A DNA stretch of 64,000 nucleotides from NCBI GenBank assembly GCA_965225945.1, contig CBDDBZ010000038.1:384001-448000 (forward strand), in the 5' to 3' direction. Shown here one piece after another: positions 44,727-51,055 of this stretch. The number at the start of each line of letters is the position of its first letter. Positions within the stretch are counted from its first letter, which is position 1. A program made the position numbers and the translations under genes. Source of the stretch: Alphaproteobacteria bacterium (GTDB lineage Bacteria; Pseudomonadota; Alphaproteobacteria; GCA-2731375). The notes under the pieces are model-generated. The model ran no database searches, was not told where the DNA came from, and worked only from the letters and a program-made list of their open reading frames with translations.

Positions 44727-45103
44727 GCACCCTTCGCCAGGCCCGCCGCTTCCTCGTCGTCGGCACCACCACGGTCCTGGTCGACCTGGCGAGCTACAGC
44801 TTCTGTCTCTGGCTGGGCGTGGGAATCGACCCGGCGAAGGGGATCGGCTTCGTCGTCGGCACCATTTTCGCCTATGTGGCCAACCGGCTCTGGACCTTCT
44901 CGGCCCGGGGCGGGGCGGATCGGGTGTTCCGTTTCGCCGCGCTCTATCTCTCGACCCTGGTGGTGAACGTCGCCGTCAACGCCGGCATGGTCTGGCTGGG
45001 GGGAACCGCCAAGCCGGCGCTGGCCGCCGCCTTCGTGGTCGCCACCGGGCTCTCGGCCTGTCTGAATTTCCTTGGCATGAAGTTCCTCGTCTTCCGCGCC
45101 TGA
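44723..45103 (+). CDS. GtrA family flippase
   Basis: [22 protein letters not shown]; four TM helices. Confidence 0.88.
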
Positions 45104-45228
45104 AGCGGGGCGGTGCGTCGAGGTCTTCCATTTCGACGAGCGCTGTCCCGCCGGCAAAATCATTGCCTTTTCCGCGTCCGCGCAGCATAGTGCCGGAAGC
45201 ACGTGACCGCCGAAGGAGGGCCGGGTCC

Positions 45229-45699
45229 GTGAAATCCATCCTCAGCTTGACGCTCAACGGACGGTCGCGCGACGACCTGGTCGCCGACAACCTGTTGCTG
45301 GTCGACTACCTGCGCGAGGTCGCCGGCCTCACCGGCACCAAGATCGGCTGCGACGGCGGCGAGTGCGGGGCCTGCACCGTGCTGGTCGACGGCCGGCCGC
45401 GCCATTCCTGCCTGACGCTCGCGGCCCAGCTCCGGGGCCGGGCGGTGGAGACCATCGAGGCGCTGGCGAGCAACGGGCGGATGAGCGCGCTGCAACGCGG
45501 CTTCCACGAGAAGTTGGGCGCGCAGTGCGGTTTCTGCACGCCCGGCATGATCATGGCCGCCGAGGGCCTGCTGAGGCGCAATCCCGATCCGAGCGAGGCG
45601 GAGATCGAGGCCGGCCTCGCCGCCAACATTTGCCGCTGCACCGGCTACGTGAAGATCATCGAGGCGGTTCGCCAGGCGGCCGAGGAGGCGCGCGCATGA
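45229..45699 (+). CDS. hcrC: 4-hydroxybenzoyl-CoA reductase gamma subunit (2Fe-2S)
   Basis: [39 protein letters not shown]; AAGGAGG before GTG. Confidence 0.85.
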
Positions 45700-48035
45700 G
45701 CCTCGCCGAGAGCCGCGTGGAGACGCCGGCGATCGGCGTGCCGCAGCCCCTGATCGACGGGCCGCAGAAGGTCATGGGTCGGGCACTTTATTCCGCCGAC
45801 TTCCAGGCCGCCGGCATGGCCGTCGGCCGGGTCCTCCGCAGCCCGCATGCCCATGCCCGCATCGTCTCGCTCGACACCTCGGCGGCCGAAGCGATGGAAG
45901 GTGTCGCGGCCGTGGTCACCGGGGCCGACGTCGCCGCCAGCTATGGTGTGCTGCCGATCGCGATGAACGAATTCGCGCTGGCCCGCGACCGGGTGCGCTA
46001 CGCCGGCGAGCCGGTGGCGGCGGTGGCCGCCGTCGACGTCGCCACGGCGCAAGCGGCGCTTCGCCGGATCCGGGTCGCCTACGAGGTGCTGCCGGCCTAT
46101 ATCCGCGCCGCCGACGCAGTGGCCGACGGCGCGGCGGCGCTGCACGACGATAAGCCCGACAACGTCGAGCGGCGGGTCGATTTCGAGCTCGGCGACGTCG
46201 AGGCCGGCTTCGCCGCAGCCGAGCTCGTGCTGGAGCGGGAATATTTCAACGCCGAGGTCTGCCAGGTGCAGATGGAGCCGCACGCGACCTTCGCCGAATA
46301 CGACGGCGAGCGCGAGGATTTGACGGTCCACACCTGCACCCAGGTACCCTATTACGTGCACCTGATGCTGGCCCGCACGCTGGAAATGGAGAAATCGCGG
46401 ATCCGCGTGATCAAGCCGCACATCGGCGGCGGCTTCGGCTGCCGGACCGAGACCTTGAACGTCGAGCTGATCGCCGCCCTCCTGGCGCGCAAGGCCGGCG
46501 GCGCGGTCAAGCTGCTCTCCAGCCGGGAAGAGACCTTCATCACCCATCGCGGCCGCCCGGAGACCACGACCCGGATGAAGCTGGGGCTGGCCAAGGACGG
46601 GCGGATCACCGCCGTCGATTGCGAGACGATCCAACGCGGCGGGGCTTACAGCGGCTACGGCATCGTCACCATCCTCTATGCCGGCTCGATGCTCTACGGC
46701 CTTTACGATATCGAGGCGGTGCGCTATCTCGGCCTCCGCGTTCTGACCAACACACCGCCTTGCGGCGCCTTCCGCGGCCACGGCACGGTCAACACCCGCT
46801 TCGCCTTCGAAAGCCTGCTGGACGAAGTGGCTGACGGCCTCGGCCTCGACCCCTTCGCCGTCCGCCGGGCGAACTTGCTCAGCCCGCCCACCATGACCAC
46901 CAACGACCTGCTGGTGAACAGCTACGGGCTGCCTGAGTGCCTGGACCGGGTCGAGGCGGCGAGCGGCTGGCGGGAACGCAAGGGCGCGCTCGGGCCGGGC
47001 CGGGGGCTCGGCATGGCCTGTTCGCATTACGTCTCCGGCGCCTCCAAGCCGAAGCACTGGACGGGCGAGCCGCATGCGACGGTGAACCTGAAGCTGGACT
47101 TCGACGGCTCGGTGACGCTGCTGACCGGCGCCGCGGAAATCGGCCAAGGCTCCTCCACCGTGCTGGCGCAATGCGCGGCCGAGACGCTGGGCGTCGACAT
47201 CTCGCGGATCCGCGTCGTCGCTTGCGACAGCCAGGTGACGCCCAAGGACAACGGCTCCTATTCCTCCCGCGTCACCTACATGGTCGGCAACGCCACGATC
47301 CAAGCGGCGGAAAACCTGAAGGCGCTGCTGGTCGAGGCCGCGGCGGCCAAGCTGGAGGCCAGGCCGGAGGAGATCGAATGCTCCGGCGAGACTTTCCGCC
47401 GCGGCAGCCAGGACCAGGGCCTCGAGTTCGACGAGGTGGTGGCCGCCGCGCTCGAGGGCACGGGCACCATCACCGTCAAGGGGACCTACGAGACGCTGCC
47501 GGAATCCTGGGGCGGGCGGAAATATCGCGGCGCCGCGATCGGCGGCACCATGGCCTTCTCCTATGCGGCCCAGGTGGTCGAGGTCGCGGTCGATGCGGAG
47601 ACCGGGGAGATCGAGGTGGTCCGGGTCTGGGTCGCGCACGACTGCGGCAAGGCGTTGAACCCGCTGGCCGTCGAGGGCCAGGTCCAGGGCTCGGTCTGGA
47701 TGGGCCTCGGCCAGGCGATGACGGAGGAGACCCGCTTCCACGAGGGCCTGGCGATCACCGCCAACATGCTGGACTACCGGGTGCCGACCATCCTCGATTC
47801 GCCACCGATCGAGGTCGCCATCGTCGAGGCGGCGGACCCCCACGGCCCGTTCGGCGCCAAGGAGGCGGGGGAGGGCTCGCTCGCCGGCTTCCTGCCGGCC
47901 CTGACGGCGGCGGTGGCCGACGCCATCGGCGTCCGCGCCCCCGATTTGCCGCTGACCCCGGAACGGCTGCTGGAGCTGATCGAGAAGGCCCCCAAGCGCC
48001 GAGGTTCCGCGAGATCCGTTCGAGTGCAATCGTGA
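45696..48035 (+). CDS. hcrA: 4-hydroxybenzoyl-CoA reductase alpha subunit (Mo)
   Basis: [46 protein letters not shown] and GAKEAGEG match the HcrA/HbaC sequence as recalled. Confidence 0.85.
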
Positions 48036-48090
48036 TAAACGTCGTGGTCGACGACGCATCGATTCTCGATCCGAAGGGGAAAGTGAGCGC

Positions 48091-48849
48091 ATGACCGAGC
48101 CGATCCGCGTCTTCTGGCGCCCGGGGTGAACCAGTTGCCTGCGCGCGAAAGAGTTTCTTTCGTCCCGAGGTGTCGATTACGAGAGCATGAACGTCCAGGA
48201 CGATCCGGCGGCGATGGCGGCCTTGCGCGCCCTCGGCGCCCGGAGCGTGCCGGTGGTCTCCAGAGGTGATCGCTTCGTCTTCGCCCAATTGCTGAACGAG
48301 GTCACCGAGTTCCTCGAGATCGAGGCGGCGGCGGGGCCGGAACTCTCCGCCGCGACGCTGGCCGAACGGCTGGACCTGGTGCTGGAAACGGCGGCGCGGC
48401 TGATCGGCCAGTTTCCCGAGGCGCGCTTGGGCGACAAGCTGCTGAACCGCGACCGCACTTACCGCGTGCTCTGCCATCACGTCTTCCGCATAACCGAAGC
48501 CTTCCTGGAGACCATGGCCGGCGCGCCGCTGACCCACGAGATGCTGACCGCCGAGCCCGGCCCGGAGGTCGAAGGCGTCGCCGACATCACCGGCTACGGC
48601 GCAGGCGTGCAGGCCCGGCAGCAAGCCTGGTGGGAGGCGTGCGAGGACCGCGAGGGACGCCGGCCGGTCGAGACCTATTTCGGCCGCCAGACGATGCACG
48701 AGGTGCTGGAGCGCACCACCTGGCACACGGCGCAGCACGTCCGCCAACTGGCAATGGCGCTGGAGATGATGGCGATCGAAGCCGACCGCCCGCTGGATGG
48801 CGAGGCGCTGGCGGGCCTGCCCTTGCCGGAAGCCGTCTGGGACGGCTGA
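48091..48849 (+). CDS. Probable selenoprotein: UxxC glutaredoxin fused to a DinB-like domain (Sec TGA at 48127-29)
   Basis: MTEPIRVFWRPG-U-TSCLRAKEFLSSRGVDYESMNV...RSVPVV is in frame with the 220-aa ORF; purine-rich RBS; His motifs LCHH and WHTAQH. Confidence 0.85.
48137..48171 (+). promoter_or_regulatory. Bacterial SECIS-like hairpin
   Basis: Stem gcgaaaga/tctttcgt with GUU loop starting 23 nt after the UGA; lower stem gcct/aggt. Confidence 0.7.
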
Positions 48850-48899
48850 ACCAACGGTACAAGACGGCGCCGGTGCCCCTCACCAGCCACGCCCACCAT

Positions 48900-48939
48900 A
48901 TTCGTCTTCATTCGGCCTCATTCGGCCTCATTCGTCTTC
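48900..48939. repeat. Four 10-bp tandem units
   Basis: attcgtcttc attcggcctc attcggcctc attcgtcttc. Confidence 0.8.
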
Positions 48940-49119
48940 CGAAGCCCTCGACGCCGCGTGACCCGATCTCCACGGGCTCGCCGCCTGGCCATGAGCGGGA
49001 CGGGGGCGAAGAGGTGAACGCGCTAACTGAACAATGATCATAAAATGACCACATTGTCGCCAAACCGCGGGCATGAATCGAATCGCAGAATCGTCGAAAT
49101 CGCACGAGGGGTGGACACC

Positions 49120-49587
49120 ATGAACCTAGCCAAACCCGATTTCGGATTATCGATCGCCATGATGGGCGCCCTGTCGCTGGGCATTCTGCCGTTGGCGGCG
49201 AGCCCTGGCGGCGCCCGGGCGGACAGCTTGGCGAGGGCCTCGAACACCTCGCTCGGCGGTTCCCTGCAAATCGTCGAGGGATCGTTGACCGCGCTTGGCG
49301 GCAGCGCCCAGATCGCCGGCGCCAGCGTCGTCCTGGTCGTCGATTCGGTCCAGGTCGTGGGCGAGAGCGTCATCGTCGTCCTCGAGGTAACGGCGGAGGC
49401 CAGCCGCGTGATCCTTCAGGGCACGTTCGATGTCGTGCACCTTTCCACCATGGCTGTCGGCGAGACCATTACGGCCCTGCTGACGACGGTGGGCTACGTT
49501 CTCTTCAAGGGCGGTCGTCCGATCGCCTTCGTCCCGGCCGAGAAGGGCCGACATTTGGCCCACAGCAGCGTCTTCGGGAGGCAGTGA
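49120..49587 (+). CDS. Exported hypothetical protein, partner of the DUF2145 gene
   Basis: Signal peptide ending ARA; GYVL...GRPIAFVP; stop overlaps the next start. Confidence 0.65.
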   Translation: MNLAKPDFGLSIAMMGALSLGILPLAASPGGARADSLARASNTSLGGSLQIVEGSLTALGGSAQIAGASVVLVVDSVQVVGESVIVVLEVTAEASRVILQGTFDVVHLSTMAVGETITALLTTVGYVLFKGGRPIAFVPAEKGRHLAHSSVFGRQ

Positions 49588-50471
49588 TGCGAGCCGGGGC
49601 CGCGGCGCTTCTCGCCGCCACCCTCGTTGCGGGGTTTCTGACCACCGGCCAGGCGGCGCGGGCCGGCGGTAGCTGCGCCGAATATGAGATCTCCGGCGCG
49701 GAGATGGTCCGCCGGGTCGATTGGGCGGCACGGATCGCCGAGCAATTGGAGGCGCTGAACCCCGAGCTCGCCCTGATCGCGCGGATCGGCAGCGACGTCG
49801 GCGAATACGGCCTGCATTACACCCATGTCGGCTTCGTCTGGCGCGACCATCCCAAGGGCCGCTGGGGACTGGTCCACGTCTTGCGGGCCTGTGCGAAGAG
49901 GAGGTCCGAGATCTTCGATCAGGGACTCTTGAACTTCCTCCTGGACGACCCCTTCGCCCTCGACGTCCTGATCCTGGAGCCGACGCCCGAATTGCAGCGG
50001 GCGATCGCGGGCCGGCTGGCCTCGAACGACGCTCGTGACTTCCACGGCCGGCGCTACAGCACCATCGCCTATCCCTTCACCACCCGCTATCAGAACTCCA
50101 ACCAATGGCTGCTGGAGCTTCTGGCCGCGGCCCAAGGCGACCTCGCGGGCGAGCGGGTCGACGATCGGGGTCAGGCCCAAAAGATCCTCGCCCGCCATGG
50201 CTACCACGGCAGCGTGCTGCGCATTCCCCCCCTAAAACGGATGCTGGCGAGGTTCGTCCGCGCCGATATGGCCTTCGACGATCATCCCCGCGAGGCCGCC
50301 TGGAGGGGCGAATTCGAGACCATCACCGTGGCCTCCATCCGGCGCGATCTCGCCCTGAACGCGCTGCTGAGCGGCGAGACCGAACTGCGCTACCCGAGGC
50401 CGCACGATTTCGAGCGACAGCGGCCTCGGCGACGCGTGGAGGTGGCCGAGACGGAGGCCGAGCATCCTTGA
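49587..50471 (+). CDS. DUF2145 family exported protein
   Basis: ARAGGSC, IARIGSD...YGLHYTHVGF, YSTIAYPFTTRYQNSNQW, FDDHP. Confidence 0.8.
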   Translation: MRAGAAALLAATLVAGFLTTGQAARAGGSCAEYEISGAEMVRRVDWAARIAEQLEALNPELALIARIGSDVGEYGLHYTHVGFVWRDHPKGRWGLVHVLRACAKRRSEIFDQGLLNFLLDDPFALDVLILEPTPELQRAIAGRLASNDARDFHGRRYSTIAYPFTTRYQNSNQWLLELLAAAQGDLAGERVDDRGQAQKILARHGYHGSVLRIPPLKRMLARFVRADMAFDDHPREAAWRGEFETITVASIRRDLALNALLSGETELRYPRPHDFERQRPRRRVEVAETEAEHP

Positions 50472-50486
50472 ATTTTCCCCTTGGTG

Positions 50487-50732
50487 TCAGGAGTGATCGT
50501 GCGGCTCGTGATCCTCCGTCTCGGGGTCGATCAGGCGGTGGATGTGGACGATAAAGTAGCGGGTGTGCGCCTCGTCGATCGTCGATCGGGCCTTGCCCTG
50601 CCAGGCCGCGTGGGCCTCGGCGTAGTTCGGATAGATGCCGACGATGTCGAGGCCCCGGGTGTCGACGAATTCGTGCCCGCTCGGGTCCTCCAACTCGCCG
50701 CCGAACACCAGATGCAACAACTGCTTGGTCAT
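50487..50732 (-). CDS. DUF4170 protein
   Basis: QLLHLVFGGEL, DIVGIYPNYAEA..AW, RYFIVHIHRL. Confidence 0.85.
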   Translation of the reverse strand: MTKQLLHLVFGGELEDPSGHEFVDTRGLDIVGIYPNYAEAHAAWQGKARSTIDEAHTRYFIVHIHRLIDPETEDHEPHDHS

Positions 50733-50768
50733 GCCATGGCTCCTCGTCGCAGGGGGGAGACGACCACT

Positions 50769-51055
50769 CTAGTGAATAGAATCCAACATATGGTACCCCT
50801 ACGACGGTTTCCCGAGTTCGTCCGGAAAGGCGCCTGGTGCGCCGTGATGCGGGCGCATCACAAGCGCCGGGCAACGCGTCCGGCGGGCTCGGGAAGCCGC
50901 CCTTCGGGTCCCATATCCTGGCTTCTCCCAAATCCTGGCTTCTCGGGGCGTCGGGCACCCTTGACGATGTGCCGGCATCGCCGGCGGGCGCCCTCCTGGC
51001 GAGAAACCAGGATATGGGATCGTAGGGGTACCCTATGTTGGATTCTATCCACTAG
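50769..51055. mobile_element. MITE-like element, 287 bp, 36-bp terminal inverted repeats ending in CTAG
   Basis: ctagtgaatagaatccaacatatggtacccctacga vs tcgtaggggtaccctatgttggattctatccactag (34/36); no credible ORF. Confidence 0.75.

Follow-up and report, generated by a model that had tools for sequence, protein, structure and literature searches.

The window analysed here, a stretch of 64,000 nucleotides (nt) from the Alphaproteobacteria bacterium assembly GCA_965225945.1 (contig CBDDBZ010000038.1, positions 384,001 to 448,000 of the forward strand), contains at positions 48091-48849 a gene that is very probably a genuine selenocysteine (Sec)-decoded member of a protein family in which a glutaredoxin (Grx)-like redoxin is joined to a DinB/YfiT-type domain. 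The in-frame TGA that interrupts this gene falls on the first position of the redoxin active site, where homologs carry either the same TGA or a cysteine (Cys) codon. Taken as a whole, and with hardly less confidence, the observations are best explained by an intact, Sec-decoded two-domain redoxin-DinB gene whose UGA codon is recoded with the assistance of a downstream hairpin. According to this model, translation would start at the ATG at 48091, and the UGA at 48127 would be recoded as Sec by SelB together with Sec-tRNA(Sec); the hairpin at 48145-48163, presenting a G-U loop 23 nt past the UGA, would assist in this step. The predicted product would consist of an NrdH/Grx-like redoxin (U13-T-S-C16) followed by a four-helix bundle of the DinB/YfiT type (H130, H212, H216).

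The original prediction, made from the DNA letters without database searches, had placed the start at this ATG, the TGA at the first Cys of a Grx CxxC motif and the end of the frame at 48849. All three were confirmed by the reading frame: the ATG at 48091-48093 is followed by a sole internal stop, the in-frame TGA at codon 13 (48127-48129), and the read-through product of 252 residues begins MTEPIRVFWRPG-U-TSCLRAKEFL. The motifs that had been singled out were likewise located in this product, SVPVV at residues 52-56, LCHH at 127-130 and WHTAQH at 211-216. Standard gene callers had been expected to shorten the gene, and this is indeed the case, as the six nearest database relatives (79-96% identical, among the matches listed) are all of a 220-residue form that starts at M33. 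The features of the locus are as follows.

48073..48080, plus strand: Shine-Dalgarno-like GAAGGGGA, purine-rich, a plausible candidate read from the sequence, 10 nt before the ATG
48091..48849, plus strand: full coding sequence of the Grx(UxxC)-DinB gene, 252 residues plus the TGA stop at 48847-48849; full-length homologs share the start region
48100..48321, plus strand: NrdH/glutaredoxin-like domain (about residues 4-77) with U13-x-x-C16 and the cis-proline P54, assigned from PF00462 and fold matches
48127..48129, plus strand: TGA predicted to be read as Sec (U13), first position of U-T-S-C, opposite the first Cys of the CTSC motif when Cys-form homologs are aligned
48145..48163, plus strand: hairpin resembling a selenocysteine insertion sequence (SECIS), GCGAAAGA / GUU / UCUUUCGU, 8-bp stem with an outer G-U pair, loop at 48153-48155
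48187..48849, plus strand: open reading frame (ORF) of 220 residues starting at M33, without the redox site, from table-11 gene calling
48334..48807, plus strand: DinB/YfiT-like four-helix-bundle domain (about residues 82-239), assigned from fold matches with PF12867 sub-threshold
48478..48480, plus strand: codon of H130, first His of a putative metal triad, invariant in 52/52 sequences
48724..48738, plus strand: codons of H212-T-A-Q-H216, second and third His of the putative metal triad; H212, Q215 and H216 invariant in 52/52 sequences

Sec and Cys forms of the family

A six-frame search of 61 related genomes yielded 29 full-length matches at 43-100% identity, each with exactly one in-frame TGA, and a scan of a species-representative genome collection added 80 loci. 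In the 100 homologous loci compared, TGA stands at the CxxC position in 54, TGC in 44 and TGT in 2. Both kinds of homolog that had been foreseen for codon 13 are therefore present, 54 with TGA and 46 with TGC or TGT, and the proposed pairing of Sec with the first Cys of the CxxC motif is borne out by these counts as well as by the alignment of the Cys forms, which read FWQPGCTSCL at this site (13 aligned full-length database proteins). The peptide preceding the UGA/Cys codon, (I/V)(R/K)VFW(Q/R)P(G/H/A), and the (T/S)SCL following it are kept in all 100 loci, and a methionine about 12 codons upstream is conserved in Sec and Cys forms alike. As both this peptide and the methionine are conserved ahead of the TGA, translation must pass through that codon.

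At E <= 1e-5, 1978 relatives are contained in the protein database; the full-length proteins among the best 120 of these matches are at most 60% identical. In a quick tree, whose deep forks are without resolution, the Cys forms make up one large, mostly Burkholderiales-labelled clade (41 rows, support 100) and a second, small clade of Alphaproteobacteria, and the Sec forms occupy everything outside these two.

Hairpins downstream of the UGA codon

Bacterial SECIS elements obey a spacing rule of 16-37 nt and a loop-G rule, and a G-U in the hairpin loop forms the contact to SelB. The hairpin with a G-first loop that had been predicted 23 nt downstream of the TGA proved to be real and to lie at that distance, its loop G (48153) being separated from the UGA by 23 intervening nt. 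Within the class of loci that share this proximal hairpin, alignment columns 20-38 (48146-48164) are invariant in 19 of 19 distinct loci, synonymous sites included, and the flanks of these 19 columns vary (mean column identity 84%). The identical 19-nt core is retained in all three members of the genus. The hairpin is made of rare codons (AAA, 14% of Lys; TTT, 11.5% of Phe; CTT, 6% of Leu) in a gene with a GC content at third codon positions (GC3) of 0.87 and a genome of 66% GC. The codon string AAA GAG UUU CUU UCG is present in 19 Sec forms, and none of 46 Cys forms has it despite encoding the same K-E-F-L. In Cys forms, 32.6% of the cells of the proximal structure are paired, and in Sec forms of the distal class 59.3%.

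This distal class comprises sister Sec forms in which a hairpin is found about 14 nt further on, with UCGGUCC-GUG-GGAUCGA or a CGUGC-loop variant. Across 31 sequences the distal hairpin is 93.5% paired, with compensatory changes at 4 of the 8 pairs (for example U-A in 23 versus C-G in 8), values that were matched by none of 500 shuffles. When the pairing partner was moved by 1-3 columns as a control, pairing amounted to 16-59%, and in Cys forms the distal-hairpin columns are paired at 43.2%. All Sec-form hairpin loops contain G-U, and the Cys forms are mostly without either hairpin. One and the same Sec codon is, in this family, combined with two SECIS positions, the loop starting either 23 nt (proximal group) or about 37 nt (distal group) after the UGA; on the quick tree, the distal-hairpin group requires one change and the proximal group two. 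Judged from these alignments, the predicted SECIS is an element that shifted between two positions of the coding sequence within the family while the Sec codon stayed. An Rfam scan of 47900-49100 at E <= 10 returned three chance-level matches, none of them SECIS-like.

Domain structure of the predicted protein

The claim of an N-terminal glutaredoxin domain is supported by a match to PF00462 over residues 6-63, which at 49.6 bits (E 4.5e-13) clearly exceeds the curated cut-off of 22.9. The best NCBIfam matches are models of the YruB and NrdH types; none of them reaches its cut-off, and they are only a hint on the reductant. The NCBIfam models for Grx-like selenoproteins were not passed either: the best, NF041212 (Uxx-star), reached 39.1 bits versus a cut-off of 66, and NF041114, NF041211, NF047338 and NF045501 (HUGP/GUXX-star) reached 21-27.5 bits versus cut-offs of 72-325. 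An AlphaFold2 (AF2) model built on 52 family members has a predicted local distance difference test score (pLDDT) of 94.6 and a predicted template modelling score (pTM) of 0.90, with the two domains packed confidently on one chain. In this model, U13-T-S-C16 directly precedes a helix (14-25), and residues 2-78 match the folds of BC3987 (Z 13.1), cGrx1 (7C10; Z 11.8) and NrdH (Z 10.9) with a root-mean-square deviation (rmsd) of 1.7-2.3 over 75 residues. A sequence-profile search of the Protein Data Bank (PDB) matched the Grx domain only, with 7c10 at E 7.9e-11. Going by the reference list of a review, this structure is that of the selenoprotein Grx of Clostridium oremlandii.

For the C-terminal part, the top fold match is DR0053 (6iz2), which aligns to model range 83-236 with Z 15.5 and an rmsd of 2.6 over 144/144 residues. 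Eight DinB entries match at Z >= 13, and Foldseek concurs (TMt 0.82). Other matches of the DinB fold are the mycothiol-dependent maleylpyruvate isomerase (MDMPI; 2NSG, Z 13.4), Bacillus subtilis YfiT (1RXQ, Z 12.9), the Zn-containing mycothiol S-transferase of Mycobacterium tuberculosis (8F5V, Z 11.6) and Staphylococcus aureus BstA (5WK0, Z 9.8), and the N-terminal domains of EgtB, SenA and OvsA match at Z 10-11. Many of the Cys-form homologs carry a precomputed PF12867 assignment. The residues invariant in the alignment of 52 sequences are C/U13, T14, S15, C16, S52, P54, H130, H212, Q215 and H216. A DinB-like helical C-terminal domain with His motifs, as originally proposed, is thus borne out by the fold matches together with the invariant His triad. 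Based on their spacing, H130, H212 and H216 are presumably the counterparts of the metal ligands of YfiT.

Sec machinery and further TGA-interrupted genes

The assembly from which the window is derived comprises 6.27 Mb in 39 contigs and is 96.55% complete and 5.58% contaminated. It contains a tRNA-Sec (71.3 bits; anticodon TCA according to ARAGORN) and a SelD that scores 290.1 bits versus a cut-off of 125. The latter is an Ndh-SelD fusion (Pyr_redox_2 at residues 61-366, AIRS/AIRS_C at 485-779) with Cys, not Sec, at the active-site loop. Both genes lie together on a contig other than that of the window:

C30:101320-103873 (L010:1387-3756 and L014:1497-1592, both minus strand): tRNA-Sec with the SelD fusion directly downstream

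According to passages of PMC2398784, the Ndh-SelD form is common in marine microbes. Neither selU nor a Sec-type formate dehydrogenase was found in the genome.

When in-frame TGAs were scanned for surrounding UxxC or CxxU motifs and coding-like GC3, 61 ORFs were flagged; about 29 of them were copies of one ORF, 12 were chosen by eye for family matching and 20 others left out. All of the 12 chosen ORFs (L146-L157), which lie outside the window, show matches at E <= 1e-5 that span the TGA to families in which Sec members are known, and 5 of them exceed curated cut-offs. They comprise six UGSC proteins, a SelW/T/H protein, two AhpD-related CFYUT proteins, two PrdB-like proteins and one Prx-like protein. 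Since the genome combines a tRNA-Sec and a SelD with a dozen intact selenoprotein genes and has no selU, the organism almost certainly still decodes Sec. The short ORF with in-frame TGA that recurs about 29 times ('CSAULLV') was read as an artefact, presumed to be repeat-borne, and not as a selenoprotein. Two of the UGSC genes (L146, L148) extend by about 400 residues at the C-terminus and may be the UGSC/Unknown_1 fusion that is named in the legend to Figure S1 of PMC2398784.

Evidence against Sec decoding and alternative explanations

A number of observations weigh against the interpretation as a Sec-decoded redoxin-DinB gene. The 81-nt stretch folds no better than its shuffles (z = +1.01, 164 of 200 shuffles at least as stable), and the mean folding energies of the two forms are alike (Sec, -14.4 kcal/mol, n=49; Cys, -14.9 kcal/mol, n=46); hence, the support for the hairpin comes from its position and conservation and not from energy. 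As the proximal hairpin never varies, it supplies no covariation of its own, and the rule of at least 6 bp, a G in the first two loop positions and a distance of 16-40 nt after the UGA, which favours Sec decoding in being satisfied by 51 of 51 distinct Sec forms versus 6 of 46 Cys forms, was formulated post hoc. In the C-terminal domain, PF12867 (DinB_2) remains below its curated cut-off (20.7 versus 24.8 bits, residues 129-220). The gene neighbourhood is not conserved: when ORFs of at least 100 residues lying no more than 3.5 kb from the 100 loci were grouped into clusters, a procedure in which many clusters are spurious high-GC frames, no neighbour cluster occurred in more than 14 of the 100, so that the surroundings give no clue to the substrate. 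The main evidence against Sec decoding, finally, concerns the machinery that had been expected in the genome, of which selC and selD were found and selA and selB were not, searches of the 96.55%-complete assembly having detected neither. In the genus mate G001, a block of about 7.5 kb is formed by a molybdopterin oxidoreductase gene, selA and selB; this block is without counterpart in the assembly studied here, and the sequences flanking it map to interior parts of contigs C24 and C39, not to contig ends. The sole PF03841 hit (37.9 bits) was rejected as selA, being a SelA-like paralogue that occurs in relatives alongside a true SelA.

Of the 32 genomes in the same taxonomic family, 31 have a selB above its cut-off and 30 a selA, both genus mates being among the carriers; in relatives, the two genes adjoin each other. 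Among the other genomes with the TGA-containing gene, selB is over cut-off in 29 of 30, the exception being 77% complete. We regard it as very likely that the missing selA and selB reflect a gap in assembly or binning, and such a gap is plausible because more than 60 copies of a 1.03-kb repeat are present in the genome. A further hint comes from four sequencing runs of four studies that hold the window and whose contigs also cover selA (X9, 496 nt, 83% alike) and selB (X6, 810 nt, 85%) of the genus mate. The same runs contain contigs for the upstream oxidoreductase (X1 and X2, 85-86% alike), and contigs covering the flanks, which the assembly itself does contain, are similarly alike at 84%. 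At 80% likeness, the selA-selB locus of the genus mate is covered in 30 of 30 bins in all 4 runs, by metagenome contigs that stem from many organisms. As these runs are metagenomes, the selA- and selB-like contigs are not assignable to the present organism and serve as a hint only. As a separate observation, the gene directly upstream of selA-selB in the genus mate (L136:7709-10435) encodes a molybdopterin oxidoreductase of 908 residues and is without in-frame stop.

The absence of selA and selB, of the whole oxidoreductase-selA-selB block between flanks that lie within contigs, and of a Sec-type formate dehydrogenase would also fit a stranded gene, that is, one in an organism that has recently lost selA and selB, so that the TGA now terminates translation and leaves a pseudogene-to-be or only the 220-residue DinB fragment. 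We consider this improbable, since tRNA-Sec and SelD are intact without a selU that could account for the retention of SelD, and since no fewer than 11 further TGA-interrupted genes that belong to known (seleno)protein families have stayed intact. In the gene itself, the 12 N-terminal codons, the TGA and the hairpin have remained intact, with the 19-nt core shared by three genus members; the co-occurrence of selA-, selB- and oxidoreductase-like contigs in four window-holding runs likewise speaks against a loss, with the reservation on metagenomes given above. An ordinary stop codon, with the 220-residue ORF from M33 as the real gene and the upstream Grx-like stretch as a dead remnant, would be in line with the table-11 gene call and with the form shared by the six closest database records. 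However, the protein sequence encoded by the 12 codons before and 19 codons after the TGA is conserved among loci whose overall identity is only 43-60%, and the TGA is found in 54 loci. In addition, M33 is confined to the three genus members, other Sec forms having I or V at this position, and a start at M33 would deprive a domain modelled by AF2 with a pLDDT >90 of its active site and of strand 1. The synonymous-site conservation and the covariation 3' of the TGA are, moreover, specific to Sec forms, and we regard an ordinary stop as highly improbable.

Least probable of all appears to be a reading of the TGA as Trp, Cys or Ser, by a changed code or near-cognate suppression, to which the missing selA and selB and the occurrence of functional Cys forms elsewhere would lend themselves. 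TGA terminates both the present gene (48847-48849) and the gene upstream of it (48033-48035); it is therefore a normal stop in this genome, and a global reassignment does not apply. A dedicated tRNA-Sec and SelD are present in the genome, the relatives with the gene have selA and selB, and the downstream hairpins, which are specific to Sec forms, are a requirement of recoding of the SelB type. Recoding of the UGA as Sec thus remains the interpretation on which the following sections are based.

Gene surroundings and occurrence

Two genes of the xanthine-dehydrogenase type precede the predicted selenoprotein gene:

45163..45699, plus strand: 2Fe-2S subunit gene, xanthine-dehydrogenase/aldehyde-oxidase type
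45363..48035, plus strand: xanthine-dehydrogenase-family molybdopterin-binding subunit gene, ending in TGA at 48033-48035, 55 nt upstream of the predicted selenoprotein gene

These neighbours are absent beside the corresponding gene in both genus mates. A scan of 47700-49200 for promoters and terminators found neither. About 50 nt past the stop, at 48900-48934, a 10-nt tandem repeat is located (ATTCGGCCTC, 3.5 copies, 92% matches) with ATTCGTCTTC on each side; no terminator-like site was found at this repeat.

The copies of the repeat of about 1.03 kb are 96-98% identical, and it is also present in a genus mate (L134:16310-17355); it is probably an insertion sequence. One of the more than 60 copies in the genome studied here, at C38:474386-475420, lies just outside the window, and the repeat is probably a cause of assembly fragmentation. 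The region 45000-51000 of the window is wholly or partly contained in 20 public runs from 9 studies, including sponge and marine sediment metagenomes. Four of these 20 are RNA runs, which hold 6-39% of the sampled words of the stretch.

Relation to known proteins

Stand-alone selenoproteins of the class 'Glutaredoxin (Grx), PF00462, UxxC' are listed as experimentally verified (PMC13188914). They share with the predicted protein the thioredoxin/Grx fold, Sec at the first position of UxxC and a bacterial SECIS just past the UGA. However, they consist of a single domain of about 80-90 residues, whereas the protein from the window adds a DinB domain of 160 residues and has the motif U-T-S-C. Also related are the Cys-form Grx-DinB proteins, mostly from metagenome-assembled genomes of Burkholderiales, which have the same two domains in about 250-260 residues, are 52-60% identical over 98-100% of the query and carry the same invariant residues; they differ in having TGC or TGT in place of the Sec codon and in mostly being without the downstream hairpins. 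Their records are annotated as 'glutaredoxin domain-containing protein', 'DinB family protein' or 'NrdH-redoxin', and no reported function was found for them in the literature covered.

The DinB/YfiT thiol enzymes represented by YfiT, BstA, the mycothiol S-transferase and maleylpyruvate isomerase share the four-helix bundle with the predicted protein, as well as the His ... HxxxH pattern that is invariant in its family, and their own chemistry uses a thiol nucleophile (passages of PMC4360819). In contrast to the protein studied here, they employ a free low-molecular-weight thiol and have neither a redoxin domain nor Sec, and the identity is only 12-16%. Canonical glutathione S-transferases (GSTs) and proteins of the E. 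coli Grx2 type likewise have a redoxin-fold domain followed by a helical C-terminal domain, a layout which explains the many GSTs in the Foldseek list. This is an analogy and not a membership. Assignment to the GSTs was rejected based on a TM of 0.27-0.35, an rmsd of 10-15 Å and the lack of a Pfam GST hit, and the DinB bundle is not a GST_C domain.

With regard to existing catalogues, the table of 119 selenoprotein families in PMC13188914 (2026) includes several Grx-like families and no DinB fusion. The term 'DinB' is absent from the portions covered of this inventory, of the deep-Sep paper (PMC12013277) and of the BSepDB paper (PMC13326102), and our literature search found no publication in which selenoproteins are connected with proteins of the DinB type. 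The Grx-DinB family is not covered by any NCBIfam model. In its covered parts, the Global Ocean Sampling (GOS) paper reports a class 'Grx-like, pfam00462, UxxC' with 42 Sec sequences (PMC2398784); its section on fusions and the legend to Figure S1 name no Grx-DinB fusion. The 'Grx-like' class described there could include short reads of the Grx-DinB family. Thus, Grx-DinB is apparently a widespread, uncatalogued selenoprotein family of a familiar kind, that of the UxxC redoxins.

Proposed function

DinB-family enzymes such as YfiT/BstA and Mst attach bacillithiol or mycothiol to electrophiles, as described in passages of PMC4360819. The original prediction had coupled a Sec redox domain to a thiol transferase or isomerase; of this, the redoxin-DinB architecture stands, and the enzymatic role is suggested by the fold relatives. 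By analogy with these, our best guess for the enzyme is a metal-dependent thiol/selenol transferase or reductase. The DinB domain might bind a divalent metal together with a substrate that is thiol-reactive or electrophilic, in the manner of the bacillithiol and mycothiol S-transferases and of maleylpyruvate isomerase. The tethered redoxin, with the selenolate of U13 and with C16, could then provide the nucleophile or a resolving pair that replaces or assists a low-molecular-weight thiol, and would afterwards be re-reduced by thioredoxin reductase or glutathione. Selenium would be expected to render the nucleophile more reactive and less prone to over-oxidation. This specific chemistry, in which a metal-bound DinB domain acts together with a redoxin nucleophile, is a tentative proposal drawn from the related folds, and we would not be surprised if it turned out otherwise. 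More speculative still, and in our estimate rather unlikely, is an arrangement in which U13 swings onto or beside the metal of the His triad and serves as a built-in nucleophile or fourth ligand instead of free mycothiol, bacillithiol or glutathione. If true, this would make the protein a self-contained selenium-metal enzyme and the first Sec link to the large and mostly uncharacterised DinB superfamily.

Implications

The interest of the gene lies in its link to the DinB superfamily, in the alternative SECIS positions and in the shortened database records of its closest relatives. These records lose the first 32 residues together with the catalytic site, by which a Grx-DinB enzyme becomes a nameless, DinB-only fragment of 220 residues; this loss in annotation touches many alphaproteobacterial genomes and some Burkholderiales. 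The two SECIS positions that go with one Sec codon represent a natural experiment on SECIS placement, and with this family the prokaryotic selenoproteome gains an entry that apparently had not been catalogued. Most DinB proteins are without known substrate, and the attached redoxin with its exchange of Sec and Cys points DinB chemistry to thiol/selenol redox or transfer reactions; the Cys forms, being abundant, lend themselves readily to biochemical work. For the organism itself, which carries at least 12 TGA-interrupted genes of (seleno)protein families and whose DNA occurs in sponge and marine-sediment metagenomes, the supply of selenium may matter to its ecology.

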